Positions 1,147-29,958 of a stretch of DNA of 32,565 bases are shown one piece after another. The translations under genes and the position numbers were made by a program. Every line of letters begins with the position of its first letter. Position 1 is the stretch's first letter. Source of the stretch: Promethearchaeota archaeon (lineage in GTDB: Archaea; Asgardarchaeota; Lokiarchaeia; Sigyniarchaeales; SOKP01); the NCBI GenBank assembly GCA_048940645.1, contig JBHLOI010000036.1, forward strand, positions 1 through 32,565. Direction: 5' to 3'. The notes under the pieces were generated by a model. That model worked only from the letters and a program-made list of their open reading frames with translations. It was not told where the DNA came from and ran no database searches.

Positions 1147-3150
1147 TTAATTAAATTTTTTTATTAATTCTTCTAATTCATGAATTTGGCTATTAATATT
1201 TTTCTCAATTTCTCTTAATTTATTTTTCTTATTCTCAAGCTCTTTCGCTGTAATTTCTCCCGTTAATTCTTTCATATCAAATTCTAATGACATTTTTGAA
1301 ATATTTGCCTTCTTAATTTTTAAATCCATCAGGGATTTTTCTAAATCTCCCTTCTGTTGAATGTTTAATGTAGTGATAGGTTCGATTTGTTCACTTTTTT
1401 GTTGTGGGGTTATACTAGGTGTATCAGGAACTGGTTTTTTAGGAGGGGTTACAGGCTTTTTTTCTAGTTTAACTAATTTTGTTGGAACGACAGGTACAGG
1501 AGTTTTTGGTTGAATCTCCAGTGGTTTCTGAGGAACAGGAGTTAGTTTTAATTTTGGTGGCATTACTTGTTTTATTGATTTTGGTTTGATTAATTTAGTT
1601 GGAGCAATAGCCTTGGGTTCCTTTTTTACTTGTTGATTTTCAACTTGAGCATATGGAGATATTGTTAACTTTTTCCTTGCATCCTTGGGAACTGTTGTTA
1701 TAGTTTTAGGTCTTTCTTTTACCATAAAATCCTCTGGATTTAGATTTAAACCCACCTTTAAAGGGGTTGATTCAGGTTTTTGAAGGCTTTCTGGTTTAGC
1801 TATGGGTTCTTTTGGTGGAGGAGGAGGGGGAATAGCTTTTTTTTCTGGAGTTTCAGGAATACTCTCTTCTTCGATTATTTTAACAGGTTCCTTTTGCACT
1901 TTTGGTTTTATGAGCTCTGCTGATTTTTCTGGAACTTTTGGTTTTTCAGATGCTATTGGTTCCTCTGGAATTTTTCGTAGATCAGGAGGTGGCGGAGGCT
2001 TTTCAAACGGTTTAGGCTCTGTAGCGACTTTTTCTGTTGAAATTAGAACTTCTTCTGGTTTAGCTTTTTGAGGTTCGGTAATTGCTGGAGAGGTTGGTTG
2101 TGGAGGTGAAACTTGCTGAAGCATGTTTTTAATTTTTTGGGATTTTTCGAAAAATTCTCTTCCTAATGAATCATCACCTAATTCAATACATAAATCACTA
2201 ATTTTCTCAAAAATATTTGCTGCTTTTTCAAACTCAGCATTTTCTAATGCTTTTGTGGCTTCTTCTATATGAGTATCTCTTTTCAATAAAGGTTGCAATA
2301 AAGGTGATACTTCAGCACTCATTTCTAAAATATCTGCAATAATGGTTATCATTTTATCTCTGTTAACAGGATCTTTAGCAATCATTGAATAAGTTTTTAA
2401 ACCTAAAATTTTTTCAATTTGATCAGGCTTCATTGCAGTCTTCAGATCTTGTTTATTTCCTATTATAGCGGTATGAGCATGGGGTGCTTGTTCTTTTATT
2501 AGTTCTAAGAAAAATTTACTTTTTTCTACATTTTCTAAACTAGAATCTGTAATTAAAAGGGCAGCATCGCTACCTTTGATAAAATTATTCCAAAGATAAC
2601 TAAATTGCTCTTGACCTGCAAAATCCCAGAGGTGAAAATGTAATTTTCCAATCTTAATTGTAGCAATATCACCAGTAATTGTTGGAATATGCTGCATAGG
2701 AATTTCTTCTGCTTTTATAAGCCTTGTTATTGTTGTTTTACCAACTCCAGAAAATCCTACCAACGATATTTTTGGTCTTAAATTTTTATGAATTGCATCT
2801 ATGGTAGGATCAAAAACTTCAAAGGTTTTATCATCATATCTGTGTTTTATAATATCTTCAAATAAATTTAAAAACTCTTTTTTACATTTTATTAATTCTT
2901 TTTTAATATTATCAAAATTATCAGTTAATCCTGTGACAAACAAAAAAATTACTTGTAATTTTGTTTCGGTTATATAGGAAATTCTATATTTATAATAATC
3001 ATGATAGTTAACTTTATCTATACTTTTAATAAAAGCATCTTTCATCAAGTCAACAACTAATGCATTAAATACTTCTGTTTTTAGAGCTTTCCCAAAATGT
3101 CTATAATAGATCAAATCACTGCCCTTATAGATGTATACTTGTCTTAGAAT
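1147..3150 (-). CDS. Multidomain small GTPase: longin-like N-terminus, Arf/Rab-like GTPase, TPR-like helices, long Pro-rich linker, C-terminal coiled coil
   Basis: G1 GFSGVGKT, G2 PTI, G3 WDFAGQ, G4 NKQD. The ORF track starts at TTG 3114, but the frame stays open to ATT 3150 (ILRQVYIYKGSD), 6 nt after GGTGA. The longin call is from the secondary-structure-like residue pattern only. Confidence 0.85.
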   Translation of the reverse strand: MLRQVYIYKGSDLIYYRHFGKALKTEVFNALVVDLMKDAFIKSIDKVNYHDYYKYRISYITETKLQVIFLFVTGLTDNFDNIKKELIKCKKEFLNLFEDIIKHRYDDKTFEVFDPTIDAIHKNLRPKISLVGFSGVGKTTITRLIKAEEIPMQHIPTITGDIATIKIGKLHFHLWDFAGQEQFSYLWNNFIKGSDAALLITDSSLENVEKSKFFLELIKEQAPHAHTAIIGNKQDLKTAMKPDQIEKILGLKTYSMIAKDPVNRDKMITIIADILEMSAEVSPLLQPLLKRDTHIEEATKALENAEFEKAANIFEKISDLCIELGDDSLGREFFEKSQKIKNMLQQVSPPQPTSPAITEPQKAKPEEVLISTEKVATEPKPFEKPPPPPDLRKIPEEPIASEKPKVPEKSAELIKPKVQKEPVKIIEEESIPETPEKKAIPPPPPPKEPIAKPESLQKPESTPLKVGLNLNPEDFMVKERPKTITTVPKDARKKLTISPYAQVENQQVKKEPKAIAPTKLIKPKSIKQVMPPKLKLTPVPQKPLEIQPKTPVPVVPTKLVKLEKKPVTPPKKPVPDTPSITPQQKSEQIEPITTLNIQQKGDLEKSLMDLKIKKANISKMSLEFDMKELTGEITAKELENKKNKLREIEKNINSQIHELEELIKKFN

Positions 3151-3188: not shown

Positions 3189-3680
3189 TTAACTTGAAAT
3201 AAATTTAACAAGATCTTTTATAATTGAATATTTTTTCTCTTTAAATTTTTCATGTTTAATAGTATCTTCAATTTTTTTAATCTCTTTTGAAAAGTCAATA
3301 ACTGAAAACTCATTTATCTCCTGCTTTTTAGTAGATTCACTTAATTTTTTTAAAAACACACTAATACTTGGCATAAGTTTTGCTAAATTAACATCTAAAT
3401 CCAATTTTGAAATTAAAATTAACTCTTCATTGAAGGTAAATAAATAATTATAATCTTGAGCTTCTAAAGCAAAAGAATTTATTTTTTTTAAATTCAAATC
3501 TTTAGCAATATCTTGAGAATTAGCTATAAGTGATAGAATTTTTTGGGGTATCACTTTTCCTTTAGAAAATTCTTTAATTGCCGTTCCAAGTATTATACCA
3601 TATCGATTTGCTATTGCACATTCTGAATTTAATTCTGTTTTTAATTGTGAGATTATATCATCGTAATCAATTTGTCTCAT
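3189..3680 (-). CDS. Roadblock/LC7 (profilin-like fold) domain protein with C-terminal helical extension
   Basis: An N-terminal helix, then CAIANRYGIILG, a beta-rich middle (FALEAQDYNYLFTF, LILISK) and a closing helix. Lies directly upstream of and co-oriented with the GTPase. Confidence 0.6.
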   Translation of the reverse strand: MRQIDYDDIISQLKTELNSECAIANRYGIILGTAIKEFSKGKVIPQKILSLIANSQDIAKDLNLKKINSFALEAQDYNYLFTFNEELILISKLDLDVNLAKLMPSISVFLKKLSESTKKQEINEFSVIDFSKEIKKIEDTIKHEKFKEKKYSIIKDLVKFISS

Positions 3681-3788: not shown

Positions 3789-4574
3789 GTGAAAATATAT
3801 AAATTTCATTTCATAGAAAAAGAGTCAGATATCACTATTATTTCAGAATCGAAAAATGCTATTTTAAGAGCAAAAAATGAATTTCATCTTCATAGAAGAA
3901 TTCTGGAAAGATATATAATTAAGCATAAAGTATTTCTTACTTCATTTTCACCAGTTAAAGTTCAAACTGATTATGATATAATCAATCTAATGGCTGAAGT
4001 AGCGCTTCTATGTGATGTTGGTCCGATGGCTACTGTGGCAGGAGCTTTTGCAGATTTGATGCTTAAAATAATGAAATCTAAAAATGATGATTTTGATGAT
4101 GCAAAAATCGCATTGATAGAAAATGGCGGAGAAATAGCCAACGATTCTGAACGAACAATGAAAATTGCCCTTTTTGCCGGAAATAATGAATTAAGTCTGA
4201 ATATTGGATTTTTAATTGAAAAGAAAGACTGTCCCATTGGTATTGCGACTAGTTCAGCAACAATAGGACATGCAATTAGCCTTGGCCAAGCAGATGCAGT
4301 AACCATTTTTGCTGAAAATGCTACAATAGCTGATGGTGCTGCAACAAAAATTGGAAATATTGTAAAAGGAGAAGATATTGAGAAATCTATTAAAAGTGGA
4401 TTAGATCTCGTTGACGATTTAGAAGTTATTAGAGGTGTTTTTATTTCTCGTAAAGATAAAATAGGAATGAGCGGATATATTCCTCAAATGATTAAGATAG
4501 AAGGCACAAATGAATTAATACTAAAGAATAAAATTGAATATTACCTTCCAGGTAATTTTGAGATTTTTAAATAA
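3789..4574 (+). CDS. UPF0280 family protein (ApbE-like superfamily)
   Basis: Motifs VGPMATVAG, IENGGEIA, SSATIGHAISLGQADAV, ADGAAT. Confidence 0.85.
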   Translation: MKIYKFHFIEKESDITIISESKNAILRAKNEFHLHRRILERYIIKHKVFLTSFSPVKVQTDYDIINLMAEVALLCDVGPMATVAGAFADLMLKIMKSKNDDFDDAKIALIENGGEIANDSERTMKIALFAGNNELSLNIGFLIEKKDCPIGIATSSATIGHAISLGQADAVTIFAENATIADGAATKIGNIVKGEDIEKSIKSGLDLVDDLEVIRGVFISRKDKIGMSGYIPQMIKIEGTNELILKNKIEYYLPGNFEIFK

Positions 4575-6846
4575 CCCAATAATAAGGAAAGTCTATACCA
4601 TTTTCACTTTTAGAGGAGCAAATCCTATTCATGTAATCCATATTATAATATTCTTCGATTTCTTCTTCAGTTAATCTTTCGAAAACATCAAATCCGGTAA
4701 ATGCCATATAATTATCATCTAATATTAGATAAATATCTGTATTTAGATACTCCTTCATTTGTTGTAACTTATTCGTACCATTTGGGTAGAAATGGTCTTC
4801 TGGTTTAAAATAACCTTTTGGTGCTTGTTTGAAATTAATAAGATCAGATAGTAAAATACTTCTATTATGTTCTTCATAAGGATATTCAAAATACATAACT
4901 ACATAGGGAATTCCAAATTCACAAATTATAAAATTTACATCAGAAGTGTAGCTTGAATACCATTGAAGGGAATATACTTCGCGTCTATGTAGACTATATT
5001 CTTTATCGTCGATATCAAAAAGTTGATTTGAAAATTGGGCAAAAAAATTAAAAATGACTACACTTAAAATAAAAATTTTGATTTTAATCATAGTGATTGA
5101 CTTTAATTTAATTAATTTATATATGTAAGATATAAAACCAAAAATTAAAACGGGGGAGATTAATAATAATATTCTTCCGGACCAAAATTGATGCAGAACA
5201 AACACATCTAGGGAAAAAGCAGTTAAATATATTATTATCATACCTAATAACCATAATAATAATGATTTACCTCTTGCATTTTTTTGGAATAAAATTAACC
5301 CCCATGTTCCGAAAAATATCATAATGAAAAATTCAAATGCAATTAATAATCTTGAAAAATATAAATCAAGAAAATTATAATTGACAATTAAAGCTGAAAT
5401 AAGAAATATTGCACCGAATGATAAAAATATTGGAAATATTAATTTATCTTCTATTTTTTTATAATATCCATATTTCTGGCCCGAAATAACTAATTTAAAT
5501 CTATTTTTTTCAAATTTAATTCCGCTTCGTAATTTTAAAACTATTAGAAATGCAATGATAACCCCTATAACTAAAAAATACCAAGGCAAACCTAAAATAT
5601 CCACAATAACCCAATGAGCACTTATTCCACTAATATTAAATAAAGTGAAAAACGCTCCAAGACAGATACATAAGATTATAAAATCTATTCCTCGCTTATA
5701 ACTTCGAGCAAAATAAATTAGAAAAATGAAGGTAAATGATACCAAATATATTGTTGCTATAAGAGAGTGAGTAAATAAGGCACTAATATAGATTAAAATA
5801 ATAAAAATGTATGTGAAAGTCAAATTTGAGAATATTTCTTTCTTCGTAGGAGGTTCTTCTTTGACAAAATTTTCTAATCTAACATAAAGTAAAAAGAAAA
5901 TGTATAAAGATTGAATAGATGCTAAAGATGTTGGCCAAAATTGATACATTGTATTGCTAAAACCCAAAGAAGTAAATTCTACTAAAAAAACTCCTAAAAT
6001 GGCTAAGTTACGGTTTTTAAAGATTCGCTTCAAAATATTAAAAATTAAAAGCCCTGAAACTAAAAATGTATAAAAAGAGAAATATTGTGCTAAAAGTAAA
6101 TGATCTATTCCGGTAAAAAAATGAATTAATGCTGCAAATAAATGTAAACCTAAAGCACCAAAATATTGATCAACTGGCAAATAATTAAGATTATTTATCA
6201 CTTTAGCCATAAAGATATGATACATAGCATCAGTACCATAAAAATAGCTAAATCTTACACCATTCAGTATTGGCATCAATATTAAAAAGATTACTATTAA
6301 TAATCCAGATAAAGGGATTCTTCTTTTAAAATAATTTAAAATAGAAAAACTCTCGTAAAATGACTGTTTATTAGCATTAAATTCTTCAACTTTTAAGAAA
6401 AGAGAAATTTTAGTCCTCTCTTCATAAATAACGATATATATTAACAATGAAAAATAAATAATTAAGGTTAAAAGAAAGAAGAAATATCCTGTAATAGGAA
6501 TTTCAAAAAAATTTCCGACATAAGCAGATAAGATATAAAGAGTTAAATTTGCAACTATAGTTAAACTCATTTTTTCTAAAAAATTGAAATTCTTATTTCT
6601 AAATATTATAAAAAATAAAGGATAAAAAGGTAAAAATATAACAATAAAAGCTGTGCTAAGTAAACATATTAGTGTAAAGAAAAATTGGCAGATATACATA
6701 TTATTTATCTCAAAAATGACCGATAACCCAATTAGATTTAAAAAAATTACTATGAAAGATAATAGAGATAAAATGAATATGCTAATTTGTTTTCTAATAT
6801 AAATGAATAAAATTATTTTGTTTAAAATAACCTTTAATATACTCAT
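4567..6846 (-). CDS. Polytopic membrane protein, probable GT-C-fold glycosyltransferase
   Basis: Many hydrophobic segments, a GTDAMYH (DxxxH) loop after the first TM bundle, and a soluble C-terminal domain with NRS and NGT sequons. No WWDYG motif. Confidence 0.55.
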   Translation of the reverse strand: MSILKVILNKIILFIYIRKQISIFILSLLSFIVIFLNLIGLSVIFEINNMYICQFFFTLICLLSTAFIVIFLPFYPLFFIIFRNKNFNFLEKMSLTIVANLTLYILSAYVGNFFEIPITGYFFFLLTLIIYFSLLIYIVIYEERTKISLFLKVEEFNANKQSFYESFSILNYFKRRIPLSGLLIVIFLILMPILNGVRFSYFYGTDAMYHIFMAKVINNLNYLPVDQYFGALGLHLFAALIHFFTGIDHLLLAQYFSFYTFLVSGLLIFNILKRIFKNRNLAILGVFLVEFTSLGFSNTMYQFWPTSLASIQSLYIFFLLYVRLENFVKEEPPTKKEIFSNLTFTYIFIILIYISALFTHSLIATIYLVSFTFIFLIYFARSYKRGIDFIILCICLGAFFTLFNISGISAHWVIVDILGLPWYFLVIGVIIAFLIVLKLRSGIKFEKNRFKLVISGQKYGYYKKIEDKLIFPIFLSFGAIFLISALIVNYNFLDLYFSRLLIAFEFFIMIFFGTWGLILFQKNARGKSLLLWLLGMIIIYLTAFSLDVFVLHQFWSGRILLLISPVLIFGFISYIYKLIKLKSITMIKIKIFILSVVIFNFFAQFSNQLFDIDDKEYSLHRREVYSLQWYSSYTSDVNFIICEFGIPYVVMYFEYPYEEHNRSILLSDLINFKQAPKGYFKPEDHFYPNGTNKLQQMKEYLNTDIYLILDDNYMAFTGFDVFERLTEEEIEEYYNMDYMNRICSSKSENGIDFPYYWVI

Positions 6847-18314: not shown

Positions 18315-18971
18315 TTACTTTTCCTTAACACATAAGATTTGAAATGCTTTTGTGGGATGATTTCTTACAAATAATTGAGTTAAGTGAGTAATAACAAACC
18401 AAAAAAATCGAGGTTTAAATTTTAATAAGCCGTATTCACCCCTTAGGAATTTCCATCCATTAATGCCGATAACTTTGAACCCTTTTTTTTTCATTTCTTT
18501 AACAGTCCATCCAGATTTATGCACCTCCCAGGGATTATTATCGTATTCTCCTTGAGGAACAAATCCATTTGTGGTGAAAATAATTAATTTCTTTTTAGCG
18601 ATTTTTTCTAATATCTTTAATAATGAATTTCCTTCTTCTTTTGTTAAATGTTCAATCAAGTCTAATGCAATTACACAATCAAATGAGTTTTCATCAAATT
18701 CTTGATTAATTTTTAAGACATCTAATTGAATATATTTGTCATGAATTTTTTCTTTCTTACTTTTTTTAAGCCATGGTTCGAATTTATCCACTCCTATACA
18801 ATAAAATTGTTTTGGAAAATGTTTAAGTGGGGAATTTGAACCACAGCCTATATCAAGAATTGTTTTACAATTTCGGAGTAAATTTCCCAATTCAGAAATA
18901 TATTCAAATTTTATAGGAAATTTTGAATATACTGTTTTATATAATTGTAGCAACTGATTTTTGATTACCAT
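18315..18971 (-). CDS. Class I SAM-dependent methyltransferase
   Basis: ILDIGCG, GVD, FDENSFDCVIALDLIEHL, HKSGW. Confidence 0.88.
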   Translation of the reverse strand: MVIKNQLLQLYKTVYSKFPIKFEYISELGNLLRNCKTILDIGCGSNSPLKHFPKQFYCIGVDKFEPWLKKSKKEKIHDKYIQLDVLKINQEFDENSFDCVIALDLIEHLTKEEGNSLLKILEKIAKKKLIIFTTNGFVPQGEYDNNPWEVHKSGWTVKEMKKKGFKVIGINGWKFLRGEYGLLKFKPRFFWFVITHLTQLFVRNHPTKAFQILCVKEK

Positions 18972-20573: not shown

Positions 20574-21710
20574 TTATTCTAAATTTACAAGGTATTGCAT
20601 AAGAAATTTTTTATAATCTTTCGGATCCTTGGCAGGTCTCTTTAGGTTAGACCTTGAACCCTGTTTTATTTTGACAATTAAGATAATAGGCCCTTCGGCA
20701 CTTTTTATAAATTTTATAGCCTCCTCTAATTCTTTTAAACTCTTAATTATTAAACCTGATTTATAATTAGAAGAGATAGCGATCTGTAATATATCAATTG
20801 AATTTGAATTTGTAGGTTGACCTCCTGTTGATTCATGAGCATTATTATCAAAAATAATATGCACAAAATTTAATGGGTTATATCGCCCTATTGTGGTAAA
20901 TGCACCCATTTGCATAATAGCCGCTGCATCTCCATCAAAAACAATAATTCTAGTATGTGGCTTTTCAAGTGCTATACTAAGACCAATAGAGCTGGCACAA
21001 CCCATTGAACCGATGTTATAAAAACTCTTAAAGTGATTTTTTTTTCTTGATTCTCTATATTCAAACAATTCTCTGGAAGTATATCCTGTGGTTGAAACAA
21101 CTATTTCATCTTCACCTAAATTATTCATTATTAAATTAATTACCTCTTCTCTGCTGAGAATATGTTCAATATCTTGCTTTACTCTTAAGTCATATTTTTC
21201 AAATAGATTACGCCGTATTATAAAAGCATAGGGACCACAATTTTTATTAAAATATTTTATAGCCTTATTTAGTTCTTCCTTAATTGATTTAATATTCGAT
21301 TCCAAAATACTATAAGGAATTTGAAGTGTGTCTAATAGTGATAGTGTAATTCTTCCCATTTTTTTATGTTGCGGAGCATCTTTTTTCCCAGGCTCTCCTC
21401 GCCATCCAATCATTAAAAGAAGGGGGATAGAATATACGTCAGGATCACATAGAGAAGTTAAGGGGTTTACAGCCTTACCAAGACCAGAATTTTGCATGTA
21501 AACAATACCAATTTTATTAGTGGCTAAATGATATCCTGCTGCTAAAGCAATTGCTTCGCACTCATTACATGCAACGATATGTTTTAAAATACCACCATCA
21601 TTATCTATAATGAATTTGATCCATTCCTTAAATGTTGAATCAGGAATTCCAGTAAAAAATGAAAATCCTTCATCCTTTAAAATATCAAAAAATTCTTGAC
21701 ATAAAATCAT
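20574..21710 (-). CDS. aepY: Phosphonopyruvate decarboxylase (ThDP-dependent)
   Basis: FTGIPDS, YMQNSGLG, IGWRGEPG, PQH, STTGYTSREL, GSMGCASS, DGD...NNAHESTGGQ. Clustered with PEP mutase. Confidence 0.93.
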   Translation of the reverse strand: MILCQEFFDILKDEGFSFFTGIPDSTFKEWIKFIIDNDGGILKHIVACNECEAIALAAGYHLATNKIGIVYMQNSGLGKAVNPLTSLCDPDVYSIPLLLMIGWRGEPGKKDAPQHKKMGRITLSLLDTLQIPYSILESNIKSIKEELNKAIKYFNKNCGPYAFIIRRNLFEKYDLRVKQDIEHILSREEVINLIMNNLGEDEIVVSTTGYTSRELFEYRESRKKNHFKSFYNIGSMGCASSIGLSIALEKPHTRIIVFDGDAAAIMQMGAFTTIGRYNPLNFVHIIFDNNAHESTGGQPTNSNSIDILQIAISSNYKSGLIIKSLKELEEAIKFIKSAEGPIILIVKIKQGSRSNLKRPAKDPKDYKKFLMQYLVNLE

Positions 21711-21738: not shown

Positions 21739-22455
21739 TCATATTACTGAAAAATATTTTCTAATTACCTCTAAATCTTCAAAATCGTCAATTTCCATAC
21801 AGTGAATGTCGGTAATATAAATAGGTTTTAAAATTAATTCATTTAATATCTCATTTAAAGCATCTTCAGCATAGCAATATACCTTATTCTGCTTTATAAA
21901 TTTTTCAATTTGATTAAGCCAAGTTTTAAAAAACTGTTTTGAAAGTTTGTATAAAGGTGCTAAAAATGCGCTTTTAGGATCAAAAATTTCAACTCCTATT
22001 TTAGTTATTCTCTCATCAATTATTAGAGCTTTAAAATCTTTTTTAGGGATTTCAATTTCTTTATTCACAAGCACACAATTTTTTTCTTCAGAATTAAGTA
22101 TTTGTTCTAAGCTTAAAATTGAAAATATTAAGTCTCCATGTAATAGAATTACATCATCATTAATAAAATCTTTAAGTAAATGAATAGAATATATATAGTT
22201 TGTTTTCTCATATATTGGATTATGTATATATTGTACGTTCAAGGTTGGATAATTCTCACTGATATGACTTTTTATCTTCTCTTCAAAAGGGCCAGTTAGC
22301 ATAACTAAATCTATTAAATTGCACAAAATTAGATTTTTTAATTGAAGATCTAAAATAGTTTCATCATTAGTAATCTTAATGAGACATTTAGGATTATTTT
22401 CCGTTAAATATCCTAATCTTTTTCCAACTCCAGCATTTAAAATGACTGCTTTCAT
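21739..22455 (-). CDS. Phosphonate/phosphocholine cytidylyltransferase (PntC/LicC-like NTP transferase)
   Basis: ILNAGVGKRLGYLTENNPKCL, NPIYEKTNYIYS, LLHGDL, MEIDDFEDL. Overlaps the upstream reductase gene by ATGA. Confidence 0.85.
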   Translation of the reverse strand: MKAVILNAGVGKRLGYLTENNPKCLIKITNDETILDLQLKNLILCNLIDLVMLTGPFEEKIKSHISENYPTLNVQYIHNPIYEKTNYIYSIHLLKDFINDDVILLHGDLIFSILSLEQILNSEEKNCVLVNKEIEIPKKDFKALIIDERITKIGVEIFDPKSAFLAPLYKLSKQFFKTWLNQIEKFIKQNKVYCYAEDALNEILNELILKPIYITDIHCMEIDDFEDLEVIRKYFSVI

Positions 22456-23588
22456 TTAATCTCCTCTAAAATCTTTCTGAGTTGAACTTCGGTCAATAAT
22501 CGCGGATTATTTTTTACCCGATTTGGAGTAAATCCATTTCTAACTATGAGGTCAATATCCTCTGACGAATTTATCCCTAAATCGCTTAATTTAGTTTCTA
22601 AATTTATGTGTTTCATAATATATATGATTCTTTCTTTAGCATCTCGGAAATCGGAGGCACCAATAATAGATAGTAATCTATTCATTATATCTCTAACAAA
22701 ATTCACGCCCCTAGGGTCTAAAACATCATCATGATCAACCTCTGAATTAAAAACAATCATAGAAGGTAAAGTTAAAGCAACAGCATGTCCATGGGGGACA
22801 TTAAAATATGATGTGATAGGGTATGAAATAGCGTGGCAAGCAGTTGTTTTTGTTATATTTATTGCTTTCCCAGCATAATTGGCAGCAATTGCCATATTAT
22901 ACAATGATTTTTTGTTTTGATTAATACTTGCTCCAAAAATATTCTTCATAATTAACTTAATTGCTTTTTTAGCATACTTTCTGGATTCTTCTGTAGAATT
23001 TACATTCCAAAATGACTCAATTGCTTGTGTTAATGCATCCATAGACGAATATGTAATAATTTTTTTAGGTAGAGTTAACATGAAATGAGGATCGATGATT
23101 ACATAATTGGGCTGCATGAACTCTGGACTTGCTAAGGAATATTTTGTTTTCCCAATATAAACAACAGCAAAATGAGTTGCTTCACTACCAGAACCTACTG
23201 TAGTTGGAATACGAATTAAAGGAAACCCTTTTCTAATAATCCTAGCATCTCCTTTGATTAGATCTTCTGGATTGCCGTTATTTGTTGATAATATTGAAAT
23301 AGATTTACCCATATCAATGACAGAACCCCCTCCAACAGCAACTATTACATCATATTTATCCCTTTTAAAAATTTCTAATCCTTTTTTTATATCCTTAAGT
23401 TTTGGATTGGGAGTAAAATCATTGAAATGATAAAATTTGAAATTGGCAATTATTTTTAAAATAGAATTTTTTATTTCATCCTTTTCGAAGGATTTCTTTC
23501 CTGTTATTAAAAATATATTACTAAAATTATTCTGACGTAGTATCTTTCTCAAGTTTCTAATAGAATTAAATCCTCGATATTCAATCAT
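22452..23588 (-). CDS. Phosphonoacetaldehyde reductase (iron-dependent ADH family, PhpC/FomC-like)
   Basis: GGGSVIDMGK, IPTTVGSGSEAT, DALTQAIES, TTACHAISYP, PHGHAV. Lies between pepM and ppd. Confidence 0.88.
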   Translation of the reverse strand: MIEYRGFNSIRNLRKILRQNNFSNIFLITGKKSFEKDEIKNSILKIIANFKFYHFNDFTPNPKLKDIKKGLEIFKRDKYDVIVAVGGGSVIDMGKSISILSTNNGNPEDLIKGDARIIRKGFPLIRIPTTVGSGSEATHFAVVYIGKTKYSLASPEFMQPNYVIIDPHFMLTLPKKIITYSSMDALTQAIESFWNVNSTEESRKYAKKAIKLIMKNIFGASINQNKKSLYNMAIAANYAGKAINITKTTACHAISYPITSYFNVPHGHAVALTLPSMIVFNSEVDHDDVLDPRGVNFVRDIMNRLLSIIGASDFRDAKERIIYIMKHINLETKLSDLGINSSEDIDLIVRNGFTPNRVKNNPRLLTEVQLRKILEEIK

Positions 23589-23654: not shown

Positions 23655-25337
23655 TTATAACCATTTCTCCGCAAATTCTACATCTTTTTTATTATGAATT
23701 TCAAACCAGCCTTTATATACTTCTAATAAATGTACTTTAAAACCTCTGTCAATCATTTCTTGAATAAAGTCAGTAAATGAAGCTTTTTCAAAAGAATCTG
23801 CCTCATGGAACGGTCCTCTATGATTTGTTAAACAATCATAATAGATTTTTCGAATAATATTTACACCATATTCTGAAAAATAAGCGATTCCAATATACTC
23901 GTAATCAGCCATATTTTTATCAATATATTTCCCGATTCTTATAATTTCATTATCTTTTCGGTATAACATCCTCTGTTCTTTTGTTGGTTTATTTTTTGTC
24001 AAAACTAAATCAAGCTTTTTATCAATTTCATGTTTATGATATGCATATGAATTATCTACAACCAAAACGATATCATGTTTTACATTTAATAAATTGTTAA
24101 TTATTTGCTCGTTGAATAGTATATCTGAATTTAAGTAAATAAAGCCATTAATCATATCCTCCTTTGCTTTAAATAAAGAATATAAAATATAGGTATCATC
24201 ATAATCATCATTAATTATATATTTAACTCCCTCAATGTTAACTAACTCTTTTTTATACCCTTTAACGACAGTTACATCTTTAATTCCACAATTTTTTAAC
24301 AGATCAATTTGTCTCTGGAGTATAGGTTTGCCCTTGATATCTATTATTGATTTTGGAATGTCAAAAATCGGATCTTTACCAGCAGCTGGAATAATTACTC
24401 GAATCTTACCTTTTGTGTACTTTAAATCTTTTTCCCTTACTTCTAAAAATCCAACATCTTCGAAAATCGTTCTAACTGGGCTGCATAATGATTCTGCTTC
24501 AAAGGCTCTCCTATTCTTTAAAATGTTTAAAGCAGTCTCTTTCATAATCTTGTGAGCAGATCGTAATAAATGATTTGCATATATTACAATATTAAATCCA
24601 TGGTTTCTTAGTTCATCTTCAGTTACTATGTTATAAGTCGTTGGTACGCATATTAGTGGTTTCTTCAAATCCATTTCATAATATTTCTTTGCAAAATTAA
24701 AAATATCACTTGGACTATCATCTTTAGAATGAATCATTATCGCATCTGCTCCAGCATTTAAATATTTTTTTGCCCTAAATATTGCATCCTCTAATCCTGA
24801 ACCAGAAATGAAACTTTCAATTCTGGCTGCGATCATGAAGTCTGGTGAGAGTTGGATATTTTTACCTCTTTCAATTTTTATGGCGAATATATCAGGATCC
24901 TCTTGAGTCTGGTTTGAAGCAGGATCTAAACTATTTCTTTTAGGAAAAGTTTTATCCTCAATAATTACCATGGAAACGCCCATATCTTCTAAATGTCTAA
25001 CAAAATACTCAAAATTAGTAGCATCTCCCCCAGTATCACCATCAACAATTAATGGTTTTGTAGAACTGTTCAGGATTTGCCTTATTGTTTCATATCTCGA
25101 TTCAGGTCCAATTACATTAGCATCGGGATATCCTTTAGCAGCGCTTTCAGTTAAACTACTTTCCCAAATCGCATCGAATTCATAAATCTCATCTTCTTCG
25201 TTTATCTTAATATTATTAGCTATAATTGCACTTAAACCATTATGAGCTTCAATAACTCTGACAAAATTTTTTTCGTGAAGTATTTTTTTTAAGGTTCCTC
25301 TTCTCTTTTCTGGTGCAATCCTGTTAAGTAAGGCCAT
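23655..25337 (-). CDS. pepM: Phosphoenolpyruvate mutase fused to C-terminal NTP-transferase domain
   Basis: Diagnostic EDKxxxxxNS motif (EDKTFPKRNS), plus EAHNGLS, DGDTGG, ARIES, VPTTY, IYANHLLR. C-terminal IIPAAG...PK...NSDILF...WFEIH. Confidence 0.95.
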   Translation of the reverse strand: MALLNRIAPEKRRGTLKKILHEKNFVRVIEAHNGLSAIIANNIKINEEDEIYEFDAIWESSLTESAAKGYPDANVIGPESRYETIRQILNSSTKPLIVDGDTGGDATNFEYFVRHLEDMGVSMVIIEDKTFPKRNSLDPASNQTQEDPDIFAIKIERGKNIQLSPDFMIAARIESFISGSGLEDAIFRAKKYLNAGADAIMIHSKDDSPSDIFNFAKKYYEMDLKKPLICVPTTYNIVTEDELRNHGFNIVIYANHLLRSAHKIMKETALNILKNRRAFEAESLCSPVRTIFEDVGFLEVREKDLKYTKGKIRVIIPAAGKDPIFDIPKSIIDIKGKPILQRQIDLLKNCGIKDVTVVKGYKKELVNIEGVKYIINDDYDDTYILYSLFKAKEDMINGFIYLNSDILFNEQIINNLLNVKHDIVLVVDNSYAYHKHEIDKKLDLVLTKNKPTKEQRMLYRKDNEIIRIGKYIDKNMADYEYIGIAYFSEYGVNIIRKIYYDCLTNHRGPFHEADSFEKASFTDFIQEMIDRGFKVHLLEVYKGWFEIHNKKDVEFAEKWL

Positions 25338-25434: not shown

Positions 25435-26655
25435 TCAATATTCTATTTCAAGGAAATCTAAAATTCTTCTGATTGAATTTCCATCTGTATATCTATTAAA
25501 TCTATCTCTAACTTGTTTTCTTTTTTGCTCAAACTCTTTTGTTATATTCTCAATATTTTTAATTGCATTTGTTAAATCTTTAAAATTATATAAAAGTGGT
25601 CCTGGAGCTATATCTTCCAGTTTATAATACATTCCTCTAATTTTTTTATATCTCTCAAGGTCATAAGGAAAAAGTAATATTGGTCTATTTAATAATGAGA
25701 AATCAAGCATCGTTGATGAATAATCAGTAATGAGGATATCTGTAATTATATATAATTCTTGAATATCTGCTGATTTAGGTACGAGTTTAAGATTTTCATA
25801 CTCTTTAAAATTAACATCTTGAACGAAATAATGCCCTTTTAGGAGGAATAGAGTTTTCATATCTTTAAGCATTTTATTTAATTCATGCAATTCTTTCTTT
25901 GAAATCGAAAACTTTAAACTGTGATCTTCTCTAAATGTGGGACAATACAGAATTATTTGATTTACACTTTCAGGGATTTGATATTTGGTTTTTAAATTTT
26001 CGATAAAATTTTCATCCTCATTAAATAATATATCATTTCTCGGGTAACCTAAAGCTAATATTTTCTCTTTTGGCACTTTAAAGGCAGAACTTAATATATT
26101 ATGCTCTAAGTCATCTCTAGTAGGAGTTAGGATATAATTAAGATAATCATTATATTTTAATTTTAATTTAAAATATCTACCCCACTTTTTATATACAAGA
26201 AATTCAAGATCCTCATCAAAAATAATTTTCTTTATAGGTGTACCATGCCAAGTTAGAATTGTTGTCGATCTCGGTGAAAATTCAATTGGTAGTACATCAT
26301 AAATACCATGTGTGATGAAAATAAATCTTGCTTTTCGTAGTAATTTTATTGCCATAATATTTAATGTGTGGATAGCATTATATCCCTTTAATCTAAGTTC
26401 TTTAACTAATTTCCGTGATTTTGCGACCCATACAACCTTATAATCTGAATGTTGATTTAAATATTCAAATAGATATTTGGTATTATCATGATATAGATTT
26501 CCTCCATACCCCCCCATAATAATTAATTTCTCATCAACTTTATTACTAAAAAGTTTGGATAAAAGTTTAAAGCCAAATGGTATAATAATATCTCTCAAAA
26601 ACTTATAATATTTATTATTTCTCAAAAAGGAGTATTTCTCAAGTTGCAAAACCAT
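25435..26655 (-). CDS. CDP-glycerol glycerophosphotransferase (TagB/TagF) family protein
   Basis: WHGTPIKK, GYPRND, YCPTFR, KGHY, ITDYSS. Confidence 0.9.
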   Translation of the reverse strand: MVLQLEKYSFLRNNKYYKFLRDIIIPFGFKLLSKLFSNKVDEKLIIMGGYGGNLYHDNTKYLFEYLNQHSDYKVVWVAKSRKLVKELRLKGYNAIHTLNIMAIKLLRKARFIFITHGIYDVLPIEFSPRSTTILTWHGTPIKKIIFDEDLEFLVYKKWGRYFKLKLKYNDYLNYILTPTRDDLEHNILSSAFKVPKEKILALGYPRNDILFNEDENFIENLKTKYQIPESVNQIILYCPTFREDHSLKFSISKKELHELNKMLKDMKTLFLLKGHYFVQDVNFKEYENLKLVPKSADIQELYIITDILITDYSSTMLDFSLLNRPILLFPYDLERYKKIRGMYYKLEDIAPGPLLYNFKDLTNAIKNIENITKEFEQKRKQVRDRFNRYTDGNSIRRILDFLEIEY

Positions 26656-26806: not shown

Positions 26807-27370
26807 TCACACATTATTAGTTAACCGTTCGTTTGGTAGATAACCCATATCATTTAAAGCTTTTAATACAATTTGTTTACTTTCTTCTACTGTTTGTTTA
26901 TCAGTTTCAACAATTATATCTGCTTGATCTGGTTCTTCAAATGGGTGGTCTATTCCTGTGAAATCTTTAATTTCTCCTGCTCTTGCTTTAGCATACATAC
27001 CTTTTATATCTCTTTCTTCACACACTTCGAGTAAACACTTAACATAAACGAGTATATAATCACCAATTTCATTTCTTGAATATGCCCGAATCTTATTATA
27101 TGGTGATACAAAAGAGGCAAGGACAGCAACACCATTTCGGGTTAAAAGCTTAGCAACAAACGTGACTCTCTCAATATTCATATTTCGATCCTCTTCAGTG
27201 AATCCCAAATCACGTGTTAAACTCTTTCTAACAATATCTCCATCTAAACGTTCAACTTTCATTCCTCTTTTTTTCAAATCGTCAGCAACAGCATCTGCAA
27301 GTACAGATTTCCCTGAGCAAGGAAGCCCTGTAAACCATAACGTAAATCCTTTATGTTCTATTTTTTTCAC
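26807..27370 (-). CDS. cysC: Adenylyl-sulfate (APS) kinase
   Basis: WFTGLPCSGKS, LDGDIVR, DLGFTEEDR, RDIKGMYAKA, FTGIDHPFEEP. Confidence 0.96.
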   Translation of the reverse strand: MKKIEHKGFTLWFTGLPCSGKSVLADAVADDLKKRGMKVERLDGDIVRKSLTRDLGFTEEDRNMNIERVTFVAKLLTRNGVAVLASFVSPYNKIRAYSRNEIGDYILVYVKCLLEVCEERDIKGMYAKARAGEIKDFTGIDHPFEEPDQADIIVETDKQTVEESKQIVLKALNDMGYLPNERLTNNV

Positions 27371-27375
27371 CTTTT

Positions 27376-28764
27376 TTAAAATTCTATTACATTTCCTTCC
27401 ATATCTTTTGGAATATCAAATCCTAAAATATTTAGGCAAGTTGGAGCAATGTCTAATATGTTCTTGGTGCCTAAATCCTTTCCAATTTTACTTCCTGGAT
27501 TATAAATAATATATATTCCGTAATAATCATGTACAGCATCATCTGGTCCCGTATCATTTTCTTTTAAATACATAGATTCATAACCTACTGTACCAGCAGA
27601 CCTCCAATTTAAATCATCAAAATATACCATTAAATCAGGTGGATCTCCCCGAATTATTGCATAAAAATCTTCAGGTTTATAGACTTTTGTATTCATAGTT
27701 TTACCAGAGTCATCCTTTATTGATTTTATCTTTTCTGCTATAACTTCCCTCATTTTTTCATAGTCTTCCTTTTTAATGATACCCTGAGGTTCTCTTCCTT
27801 CAACGTTTAAAAAAATCCTAGCATAATAACCACCCCAACCCCAAGCATATGTTCTGTTCCAATCTATTATTGCATCATCTAATCTAGTTCTTGGTTCGGG
27901 TTTCTCTTTAAATTTTAGTAATCCAAGTTCTTCAAAAGCCATATTAACGCATATTAAACCTTTCATTGCTTTTGCTCCATGATCGGATGCTACAATAACA
28001 GTTGTATTATCATCCAACAAATCCAAAATTTCCCCTACTTCTTCATCTAAATATTTATAATATTTACGCATTTCAAGCTCGAATTTATTTCCAGGAACGT
28101 ATTTGTTATGTTTTTTATCAAAATATTTCCAAAAAGCGTGATGAAATCTATCTAAACCTATTATAACAAATTGGAAAAAGTCCCAATCTTTATTTTTCAT
28201 CAAATATTTGATTGTTTTAAATTGAATCTTAGTCATTTCATATATTTGCTTTAACAAGGCTTTTTTATTTTCTACTCTAAAATTTGCATCTAAAATGTAA
28301 TTGCCAACTTTCTCTTCTATTTCTTGTTTCAGTTCAGGGGGATATGTATAATTTGAGTCTGTATCTGGTGCTATAAAGCCAGCAATCAAGTTACCATTAA
28401 TCAATTTGACTGGATATGTGGGAGGTACTCCAATAATAATGCTTTTTAACCCGTTTCTGCCAATTATATCCCAAATGGTAGGTTCTTTTACTGAATTTGA
28501 AGTGGCTATCCAAAAATCATTATAAGCAAATTTCTTTCGATGTCTAAATCCATAAATCCCAAGAGTACCAGCTTTTTTACCTGTTGCCATAACCATCCAT
28601 GCTGGTATTGTAATTGGAGGATCAGAACTTCTTAATTTTCCATATACTCCATTTTCCATTAATTTTCTAATATTTGGGCAATCATCGATGAAGTCATTAA
28701 ATAAAGTTCTTGGTGTAGCACAATCTAAACCAATAAGGACCAATTTCTTTTTTTTTTTACTCAT
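27376..28764 (-). CDS. Alkaline-phosphatase-superfamily (NPP/COG3379-like) metalloenzyme with Thr nucleophile
   Basis: IGLDCAT, SSDPPITIPAW, LDRFHHAFW, ASDHG, DAVH, ILDIAPT. No CxPxR sulfatase motif. Confidence 0.88.
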   Translation of the reverse strand: MSKKKKKLVLIGLDCATPRTLFNDFIDDCPNIRKLMENGVYGKLRSSDPPITIPAWMVMATGKKAGTLGIYGFRHRKKFAYNDFWIATSNSVKEPTIWDIIGRNGLKSIIIGVPPTYPVKLINGNLIAGFIAPDTDSNYTYPPELKQEIEEKVGNYILDANFRVENKKALLKQIYEMTKIQFKTIKYLMKNKDWDFFQFVIIGLDRFHHAFWKYFDKKHNKYVPGNKFELEMRKYYKYLDEEVGEILDLLDDNTTVIVASDHGAKAMKGLICVNMAFEELGLLKFKEKPEPRTRLDDAIIDWNRTYAWGWGGYYARIFLNVEGREPQGIIKKEDYEKMREVIAEKIKSIKDDSGKTMNTKVYKPEDFYAIIRGDPPDLMVYFDDLNWRSAGTVGYESMYLKENDTGPDDAVHDYYGIYIIYNPGSKIGKDLGTKNILDIAPTCLNILGFDIPKDMEGNVIEF

Positions 28765-28809
28765 AATGATACCAACACAAGGCTCTTATTTTTATAATTT
28801 ACATAAAAA

Positions 28810-29958
28810 TCATGTAACAAATGGATTTTTATACTTTAGAATCACTTCTGCTACTTCCTTACGCATAACTTCTGGATCAGGTGGTTTTCCGGCCTTTAAA
28901 GCATCTCTAATCTCACGACCTGCAAAGAAATTCTGCATTTCTGGAGGATGGGGACAAATCTTATCATTCACAACCGCATCACACTTTTTACATTTTGAGA
29001 AGGAGCGAAATTTAATTGGTTCAATACCTAAATCTGGAAATTTATCAAAAATGAAATGAGCATCATAAGGGCCATAGTAATCACCTACTCCCGCATGATC
29101 TCTTCCAATAATTATATGTGTACATCCAAAATTCTTTCTTGCAATTGCATGAAATATTGCTTCTTTTGGCCCTGCATATCTCATCTCTGTTTCGAATGTA
29201 CTCATTACTACACGATTTTTAGGATAATATTCTTTAATTAATACTTTATATGCTTCGATAATTACATCATCTAAGAAATCACCTTGTTTTTTCTTACCGA
29301 TTACAGGATTTATGAACAAACCATCTACATAAGTTAAACCTGCTTTTTGGACATATTCATGTCCCAAATGTGGGGGGTTTCTTGTTTGAAATGCCACAAC
29401 TCGTTCCCATCTCATTTCTTTGAAAAGAACTCTAGTTTCTATAGGTTTCAGGTCTATTTCTGGAAATGTAGCTCTAGGTTCATTGATTAAAAATATTTGC
29501 CCTCCCATTAGTTTTTCTTTATAGTTTAAGACCCTGTTCACTCCTGGATGATCTCTTTCTAAAGTTCCATATGTTTTGCTAGCATAATTTTTTTTGTCAT
29601 AATCATAGATATCTTCTACTCTCATTAGTGCAATAGGCTTATTCTCACTATTTGTTAAGACGATCTGATCATCGCTTTTGATATTCTTGAGTTCACTTTC
29701 TGAAACATCTAAAGTTATAGGAAAAGGCCAAGGAATATCACTTTCCAAATACATTGACTCAAGAACATAATTAAAATCATTTTCATTCATAAAGCCTTCT
29801 AATGGACTAAATACTCCAAAAGCAATGTTTTTAATCACTTTTAATGTTTCAGGTCTTACTTTAATTGTTTCAAATTCGCTAATTTGACTTAAAATTCTTT
29901 CTTTTTCAAAATTAGGTAAAACTTTATTTATTAAAGTACCTCCATGTGGCGAAATCAT
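28810..29958 (-). CDS. sat: Sulfate adenylyltransferase (Sat-type ATP sulfurylase)
   Basis: PHGGTL, FSPLEGFM, QTRNPPHLGHE, MRYAGPKEA, GRDHAGVG, and Zn site CKKC...CPH. Confidence 0.97.
   Translation of the reverse strand: MISPHGGTLINKVLPNFEKERILSQISEFETIKVRPETLKVIKNIAFGVFSPLEGFMNENDFNYVLESMYLESDIPWPFPITLDVSESELKNIKSDDQIVLTNSENKPIALMRVEDIYDYDKKNYASKTYGTLERDHPGVNRVLNYKEKLMGGQIFLINEPRATFPEIDLKPIETRVLFKEMRWERVVAFQTRNPPHLGHEYVQKAGLTYVDGLFINPVIGKKKQGDFLDDVIIEAYKVLIKEYYPKNRVVMSTFETEMRYAGPKEAIFHAIARKNFGCTHIIIGRDHAGVGDYYGPYDAHFIFDKFPDLGIEPIKFRSFSKCKKCDAVVNDKICPHPPEMQNFFAGREIRDALKAGKPPDPEVMRKEVAEVILKYKNPFVT

Follow-up and report, generated by a model that had tools for sequence, protein, structure and literature searches.

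A TagF-like protein encoded beside a phosphonate cassette in a Lokiarchaeia genome as a candidate CMP-phosphonate:glycan transferase

In a Lokiarchaeia genome, the single TagF-like gene and the single pepM gene are adjacent to each other, and the TagF-like protein is probably a cytoplasmic phosphotransferase whose donor would be CMP-2-hydroxyethylphosphonate (CMP-HEP), supplied by the products of the four downstream genes, rather than CDP-glycerol. A CMP-phosphonate is predicted as the donor because the TagF-like gene is linked to a phosphonate pathway. Our comparisons of sequences and gene neighborhoods suggest that this enzyme may be the missing step that attaches phosphonates to cell-surface sugars. 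To our knowledge, no enzyme has yet been assigned to the transfer of CMP-activated phosphonates to glycans, and the TagF-family candidate, if correct, would close the last-step gap of CMP-phosphonate tailoring.

Gene organization of the locus and assignment of the TagF-like protein

The window, i.e. the whole stretch of 32,565 nucleotides analyzed here, is a part of contig C64 of a Lokiarchaeia (Asgard) metagenome-assembled genome (MAG; G000, 3.83 Mb, 89.6% complete). Its G+C content is approximately 28%, and wherever a close homolog of one of its genes has a named source, this source belongs to Promethearchaeota/Lokiarchaeia or to another Asgard group. Eleven minus-strand genes, extending from approximately position 29958 to position 18315, are co-directional, and ten of them are named here. 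Three genes assigned with Pfam and NCBIfam, encoding sulfate adenylyltransferase (sat; 28810-29958), an alkaline-phosphatase (AP)-superfamily protein (27376-28764) and APS kinase (cysC; 26807-27370), are followed by the TagF-like gene (25435-26655) and by the four phosphonate genes described below. Downstream of these are genes for a Wzx/MurJ-superfamily flippase (Polysacc_synt, PF01943; 19021-20502; 88% identical in locus L027), which is the predicted exporter of the decorated lipid-linked glycan, and for a SAM-dependent methyltransferase (PF08241; 18315-18971; 86% identical in L027), the last gene of the run. The remainder of the window contains genes for GT2 and GT4 glycosyltransferases, epimerases and dehydratases, and the window was therefore regarded as a surface-glycan locus. 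A 655-aa protein encoded at 1147-3114 (minus strand) contains a small GTPase domain of the Arf/Roc/Ras type, as is typical of Asgard archaea.

The preliminary description of this DNA had reported an intact TagB/F motif set directly upstream of pepM, and both parts of this statement hold. The TagF-like protein matched PF04464 (Glyphos_transf) over residues 38-402 (E = 7.3e-79; 265.8 bits against a threshold of 22.1), and the match spanned positions 9-365 of the 367-position profile. When aligned to TagF of Staphylococcus epidermidis (3L7I; E = 1e-43), H137 of the TWHGTP motif and H275 of the GHY motif were in register with the catalytic histidines H444 and H584 of TagF, respectively, the latter being the residue mutated in entry 3L7M. 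Across 46 Asgard homologs, H137, K142, R242, K273, H275 and D311-Y312-S313 are invariant. An AlphaFold model obtained with 28 homologs as input (pLDDT 88.2) retrieved 3L7J, 3L7K and 3L7I as the top Foldseek matches (E = 3e-28, TM 0.75), followed by TarL, Cps3D and Bcs3. No transmembrane or hydrophobic segment was found in the protein, its maximum hydropathy being 1.08. Scores against the NCBIfam equivalogs fell below the cut-offs for TarF (201 versus 550), TarL (89 versus 1000) and TarB (79 versus 500). Sequence, motifs and fold all place the archaeal protein in the PF04464 family, but it is not a TarF, TarB or TarL equivalog. A gap of 97 nt separates its gene from the gene downstream (23655-25337), which encodes a PEP mutase (PepM) that carries an NTP_transf_3 domain at its C-terminus; the identity of PepM is supported by a TIGR02320 score above the cut-off (340.7 versus 319.55 bits) and by the motif EDKTFPKRNS, which is of the EDKxxxxxNS type.

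The genes for PepM::NTase, an Fe-dependent alcohol dehydrogenase (Fe-ADH), a nucleotidyltransferase (NTase) and phosphonopyruvate decarboxylase (Ppd) constitute a complete 2-hydroxyethylphosphonate (HEP) cassette, with HEP as the predicted product. Ppd (20574-21710) scored 435.6 bits against TIGR03297 (cut-off 312.5). The Fe-ADH (22452-23588; PF00465, with the phosphonate-associated Fe-ADH family TIGR03405 as the best NCBIfam match at a score below its cut-off) is a predicted phosphonoacetaldehyde reductase yielding 2-HEP, and in AEP-type cassettes a class-V aminotransferase is found in its position. Two NTases are encoded, namely the PF12804 domain fused to PepM and, two genes away, the stand-alone PF00483 protein NTP2 (21739-22455; PntC-like). 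The fused domain (23655-24400) carries a non-canonical nucleotide loop, IIPAAGKD...PK, and in all 30 PepM-fused NTase homologs examined (L014-L076) the loop reads IIPAAGxxxxFxxPK, the arginine of GxGxR being missing; this domain may therefore not be a standard cytidylyltransferase. NTP2, in contrast, has a canonical loop (LNAGVGKRL...PKCL), its gene begins 4 nt before the end of the Fe-ADH gene, and no HEP cassette, whether accompanied by TagF or not, lacks it. On these grounds, and given the missing arginine in the fused domain, NTP2 is the predicted HEP cytidylyltransferase. The corresponding proteins of AEP cassettes are only 28-35% identical to it.

The sat/AP-superfamily/cysC trio (26807-29958) is a predicted sulfate-activation module that is separate from, and independent of, pepM. 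Its identity to the corresponding genes is 89-95% for L027 and L028 and 71-80% for L044, three loci that lack pepM (trio at 10317-13472 in L027 and at 14450-17558 in L044). The AP-superfamily protein has a Thr nucleophile context, PPITIPAW, and lacks a signal peptide; we saw no canonical sulfotransferase encoded in the window, and the trio may represent a non-canonical sulfation module. As a candidate HEP transferase, the AP-superfamily protein was ruled out, since it accompanies sat and cysC in the pepM-free loci L027, L028 and L044.

Linkage of TagF-like genes to pepM, tagD and other donor modules

We searched 400 Asgard genomes for the TagF-like protein and PepM, annotated approximately 60 loci against labelled references with Pfam and NCBIfam checks, and constructed a maximum-likelihood tree of 46 TagF-like proteins. 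The TagF-like protein of the window belongs to a clade with 99/99 support, whose members are 59-75% identical; this clade comprises 13 loci, eight of which are in the tree and five of which are metagenome or MAG loci placed by 60-75% identity. The preliminary description had named pepM versus tagD as the informative comparison for this clade, and the close homologs side with pepM: a pepM cassette adjoins the TagF-like gene in 12 of the 13 loci, in at least four flank contexts and with one inversion, and TagD was found in none of the 13. The contexts are cysC-TagF-cassette-Wzx in the window, epimerase-TagF-cassette-GT4-heparinase-like in L018, L014, L078 and L079, GT4-TagF-cassette in L080, other flanks in L016 and L020, and a divergent orientation in L021. 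In L015 (71% identity, intact TagF), the order is epimerase-TagF-GT4, and the four cassette genes are absent at exactly that position. The sister clade (99/98 support) has no adjoining pepM; one of its members lies beside a bona fide TagD (190 bits versus a cut-off of 165), and two of its genomes (G196 and G249) contain no PepM at all.

Among 135 family genomes, 20 carry both a TagF-like gene and PepM, 16 a TagF-like gene only, 11 PepM only and 88 neither. Kinship inflates any statistic on these counts, and many of the compared loci, being from genomes related to one another, are not independent. The two genes are <5 kb apart in 10 of the 20 genomes carrying both. TagD over the cut-off occurs in three of the 135 genomes, compared with TagF-like genes in 36, and it adjoins only one homolog, that in the sister clade. 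For a baseline outside Asgard archaea, we examined 79 loci among the listed matches to the nearest relatives (29-35% identity, mostly Bacillota); 28 of them had TagD at a distance of up to 8 kb, and none had PepM. A 142-aa CTP_transf_like gene near some homologs was considered as a TagD and ruled out, as it encodes pantetheine-phosphate adenylyltransferase.

The lack of TagD and of TarI/J in the window, which had been noted earlier, extends to the 89.6%-complete host genome, where the best matches remained below the cut-offs both for TagD (TIGR01518, 42.7 versus 165.4 bits) and for TarI/IspD (IspD, 22.5 versus 27 bits). Because the cassette contains two NTases of the GlmU/IspD superfamily, the absence of a polyol-phosphate cytidylyltransferase does not strictly follow. 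No match to LicD (PF04991) was obtained among the window ORFs or in the host genome.

The same HEP cassette occurs without a TagF-like gene in at least 14 Lokiarchaeia loci, in which its neighbors are a sulfatase-family protein, a 254-aa NTase, an MFS transporter, a GT4 protein and a CDP-alcohol phosphatidyltransferase. TagF is therefore not the sole possible outlet, and HEP has other outlets in related archaea. With the query used, no homolog of this sulfatase-family protein was found in G000. The gene order of the TagF-free type (L059-L074, e.g. L068 1-16000) is sulfatase-family (approximately 501 aa), NTase (254 aa), MFS (437 aa), PepM::NTase, Fe-ADH, NTase, Ppd, epimerase and proteins of 761, 265 and 163 aa, with the GT4 and CDP-alcohol phosphatidyltransferase genes nearby. 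Three window ORFs without a Pfam match, at 3189-3680 (minus strand, 163 aa), 3789-4574 (plus strand, 261 aa) and 4567-6846 (minus strand, 759 aa), share 74, 68 and 40% identity, respectively, with the trio flanking these TagF-free cassettes, and together they are a putative conserved unknown module accompanying these glycan and phosphonate loci.

In the tree, TagFs linked to pepM are found in three distinct clades, each well supported; two of these, including that of the window, go with HEP cassettes and one with an AEP cassette. L047 and L048 contain HEP cassettes in which PepM is 73-74% identical to that of the window and TagF only 45%, and in L042 and L043 an AEP cassette, with a class-V aminotransferase replacing Fe-ADH, lies beside TagF. 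In six further loci (L012, L040, L041, L044, L046 and L051), TagF is located beside an IPCT-like NTase and two inositol-1-phosphate synthases (2934-6005 in L012), an arrangement that predicts a CDP-inositol-dependent inositol-phosphate decoration of Asgard glycans. In L027, L028 and L032, TagF is found beside an NTase and MFS transporter pair. The most telling comparison is that with L027 and L028, which are from two species of the same genus. They share sat, the AP-fold gene, cysC, Wzx and the methyltransferase with the window in the same order at 65-95% identity; their TagF proteins are only 56-57% identical to that of the window, and the NTase and MFS genes stand in place of the pepM cassette. 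Since the flanks are conserved, TagF has diverged and the donor genes differ, TagF has been swapped jointly with the donor module rather than with the glycan genes, as would be expected if the specificity of TagF follows the donor. Within Lokiarchaeia, PF04464 has the look of a modular system whose TagF lineages would each have their own supply module for HEP, AEP, inositol phosphate, glycerol phosphate or the substrate of the NTase and MFS pair.

Several observations on these other loci may be added. The 254-aa NTase is 88% identical between two genera and is always followed by the MFS transporter (L027 6844-8934; L028; L068 10097-12205); the pair adjoins the HEP cassette in TagF-free loci and adjoins TagF in pepM-free loci, and its role may be to salvage a head group by import and subsequent activation. 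ORFs of 814-826 aa at L043 3184-5631, L046 4909-7353 and L055 3214-5694, located in inositol- or AEP-linked loci, are apparently tandem fusions of two TagF-like domains. In a locus from a Lachnospiraceae MAG (L089 1259-9098), genes for an LtaS-like sulfatase-family membrane protein, a PntC-like NTase, a class-V aminotransferase, Ppd and a GT2::Glyphos_transf protein (783 aa) are consecutive, and no PepM was seen in the stretch examined.

Proposed reaction and alternative explanations

The preliminary description had proposed that the protein transfers HEP from CMP-HEP to a glycan. This proposal gains from the linkage of the clade to pepM and from the joint swap of TagF and donor module; however, L015 lacks the cassette, HEP cassettes without TagF exist, and we obtained no usable residue signature for the pepM-linked TagF clades, E148 being confined to one clade and V84 and M342 being weakly shared. 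In the pathway that we propose, for which we infer the donor, the acceptor and the number of units added, PepM would form phosphonopyruvate, Ppd would convert it to phosphonoacetaldehyde, and Fe-ADH would reduce the latter to HEP. The stand-alone NTase would then combine HEP with CTP to give CMP-HEP. As in TagF, the histidine H137 would act as a base and activate a hydroxyl of a lipid-linked oligosaccharide, and this hydroxyl would attack the phosphonyl phosphorus with departure of CMP. The HEP-decorated glycan, probably also sulfated and methylated, would finally be flipped by the Wzx-like protein. Single or few additions by the TagF-like enzyme are favored, because the protein has the size of TagB and TarF.

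It is rather unlikely, in our judgment, that the protein is instead a conventional CDP-alcohol transferase that adds glycerol phosphate or another phospho-alcohol, supplied either by one of the two cassette NTases or from another source, with HEP being attached by another enzyme or to the added alcohol; the adjacency to pepM would then reflect a shared glycan locus and not a shared substrate. The active-site motifs are compatible with this explanation, as those of pepM-linked TagFs are the same as those of TagD- and inositol-linked relatives, and so are the retention of TagF in L015 and the sister clade, with its genomes devoid of PepM. Glycerol-1-phosphate is always present in archaea, and Yu and colleagues reportedly described in 2014, in J Bacteriol, an HEP-glycerol ester obtained from actinomycete phosphonoglycans. 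Nevertheless, the genome lacks TagD and IspD, NTP2 is a part of the HEP cassette even where TagF is missing and changes with the head group, and the joint exchange of TagF and donor module between flanks that are still 86-95% identical, together with the prevalence of pepM among the clade members, argues for CMP-HEP as the donor.

We regard as improbable the broad view that PF04464 proteins are general, hitherto unrecognized last-step CMP-phosphonate transferases, which Asgard archaea would combine in a plug-and-play manner with HEP, AEP, inositol phosphate, glycerol phosphate or salvaged head-group cassettes, and that the present enzyme might chain HEP via free hydroxyls on the glycan in a teichoic-acid-like fashion. 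A dedicated polymerase building teichoic-acid-like poly(HEP), with the free hydroxyl of each HEP as the next acceptor, appears distinctly improbable. The protein consists of 406 aa with no extra N-terminal domain, i.e. the size of the single-addition enzymes TagB and TarF, which makes poly(HEP) unlikely; its best NCBIfam match is TarF, not a polymerase, with TarL at a lower score; and the window contains no TagGH-type ABC exporter, while the Wzx-type flippase suits short lipid-linked units. In favor of such a polymerase are the free hydroxyl on HEP and the inclusion in PF04464 of the processive polymerases TagF, TarL, Cps3D and Bcs3. That HEP is placed on a lipid or protein by another enzyme, such as a CDP-alcohol phosphatidyltransferase (CDP-OH_P_transf), and that the TagF-like gene is unrelated to phosphonates seems highly improbable. 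Such a gene does occur in the TagF-free (type-B) HEP loci, and four are present in G000; however, all four are on contigs other than that of the window, none being near the cassette, the surroundings of the cassette consist of GT2, GT4, epimerase and flippase genes, and its linkage to TagF is clade-specific.

Significance and comparison with known systems

What is new here is the pairing of an archaeal TagF-like protein with a predicted HEP cassette, together with the natural cassette swap at the conserved locus; the enzyme family itself is known. Since TagF and its donor module have been exchanged jointly at one conserved locus, donor specificity could be mapped by means of close orthologous loci, and L027 and L028 compared with the window represent a natural experiment on the donor specificity of TagF. 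The reading of the TagF-like protein as a CMP-HEP:glycan transferase also predicts surface glycans decorated with phosphonate, sulfate and methyl groups in archaeal relatives of eukaryotes. Phosphonoglycans are a large pool of marine organic phosphorus, and a source among sediment archaea would therefore be relevant to phosphorus cycling.

Rice et al. 2019 (PMC6697681) described NTase fusions and CMP-AEP, and named LicD-like proteins as the likely transferases; the terms 'TagF' and 'glycerophosph' each have zero occurrences in that article. In a literature search covering sources other than subscription journals, no paper linking TagF or glycerophosphotransferase with pepM, phosphonate or CMP-HEP was found.

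The archaeal protein resembles TagF, TarF, TagB and TarL (PDB 3L7I-M, 8VA1) in that it belongs to the same Pfam family, is soluble and cytoplasmic, adopts the same predicted fold (TM 0.75) and retains the two catalytic histidines as well as the motifs PTxR and TDYSS. Release of CMP is predicted as for these enzymes, and the protein is of the size of TagB and TarF. Unlike these wall-teichoic-acid enzymes, it comes from an archaeal host whose genome lacks TagD and TarIJ, and it scores well below the equivalog cut-offs. Its predicted donor, a CMP-phosphonate, would contain a P-C bond where the CDP-alditols have P-O-C, and its predicted acceptor is a Wzx-dependent glycan, in contrast to the wall teichoic acid linkage unit. 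The Gram-negative capsule polymerases Cps3D (8QOY) and Bcs3 (8A0C) are similar in that a TagF-like catalytic domain is used outside Gram-positive teichoic acid synthesis for the incorporation of phospho-alcohols into surface polysaccharide; however, these are multi-domain proteins of >1000 aa that use CDP-glycerol or CDP-ribitol, whereas the archaeal protein is single-domain and has another predicted donor. With the Pnt pathway (PepM, Ppd, AEPT, PntC and LicD-like; PMC6697681) and the early steps of fosfomycin synthesis (Fom1/Fom2/FomC), the system shares a PepM-NTase fusion (PF12804), a second NTase nearby, a CMP-phosphonate as the predicted activated intermediate, and the glycan-locus setting. 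It differs from the Pnt pathway in that the head group would be HEP, formed with Fe-ADH, and not AEP, in that the genome contains no LicD, and in that the predicted last step is carried out by a TagF-like enzyme.
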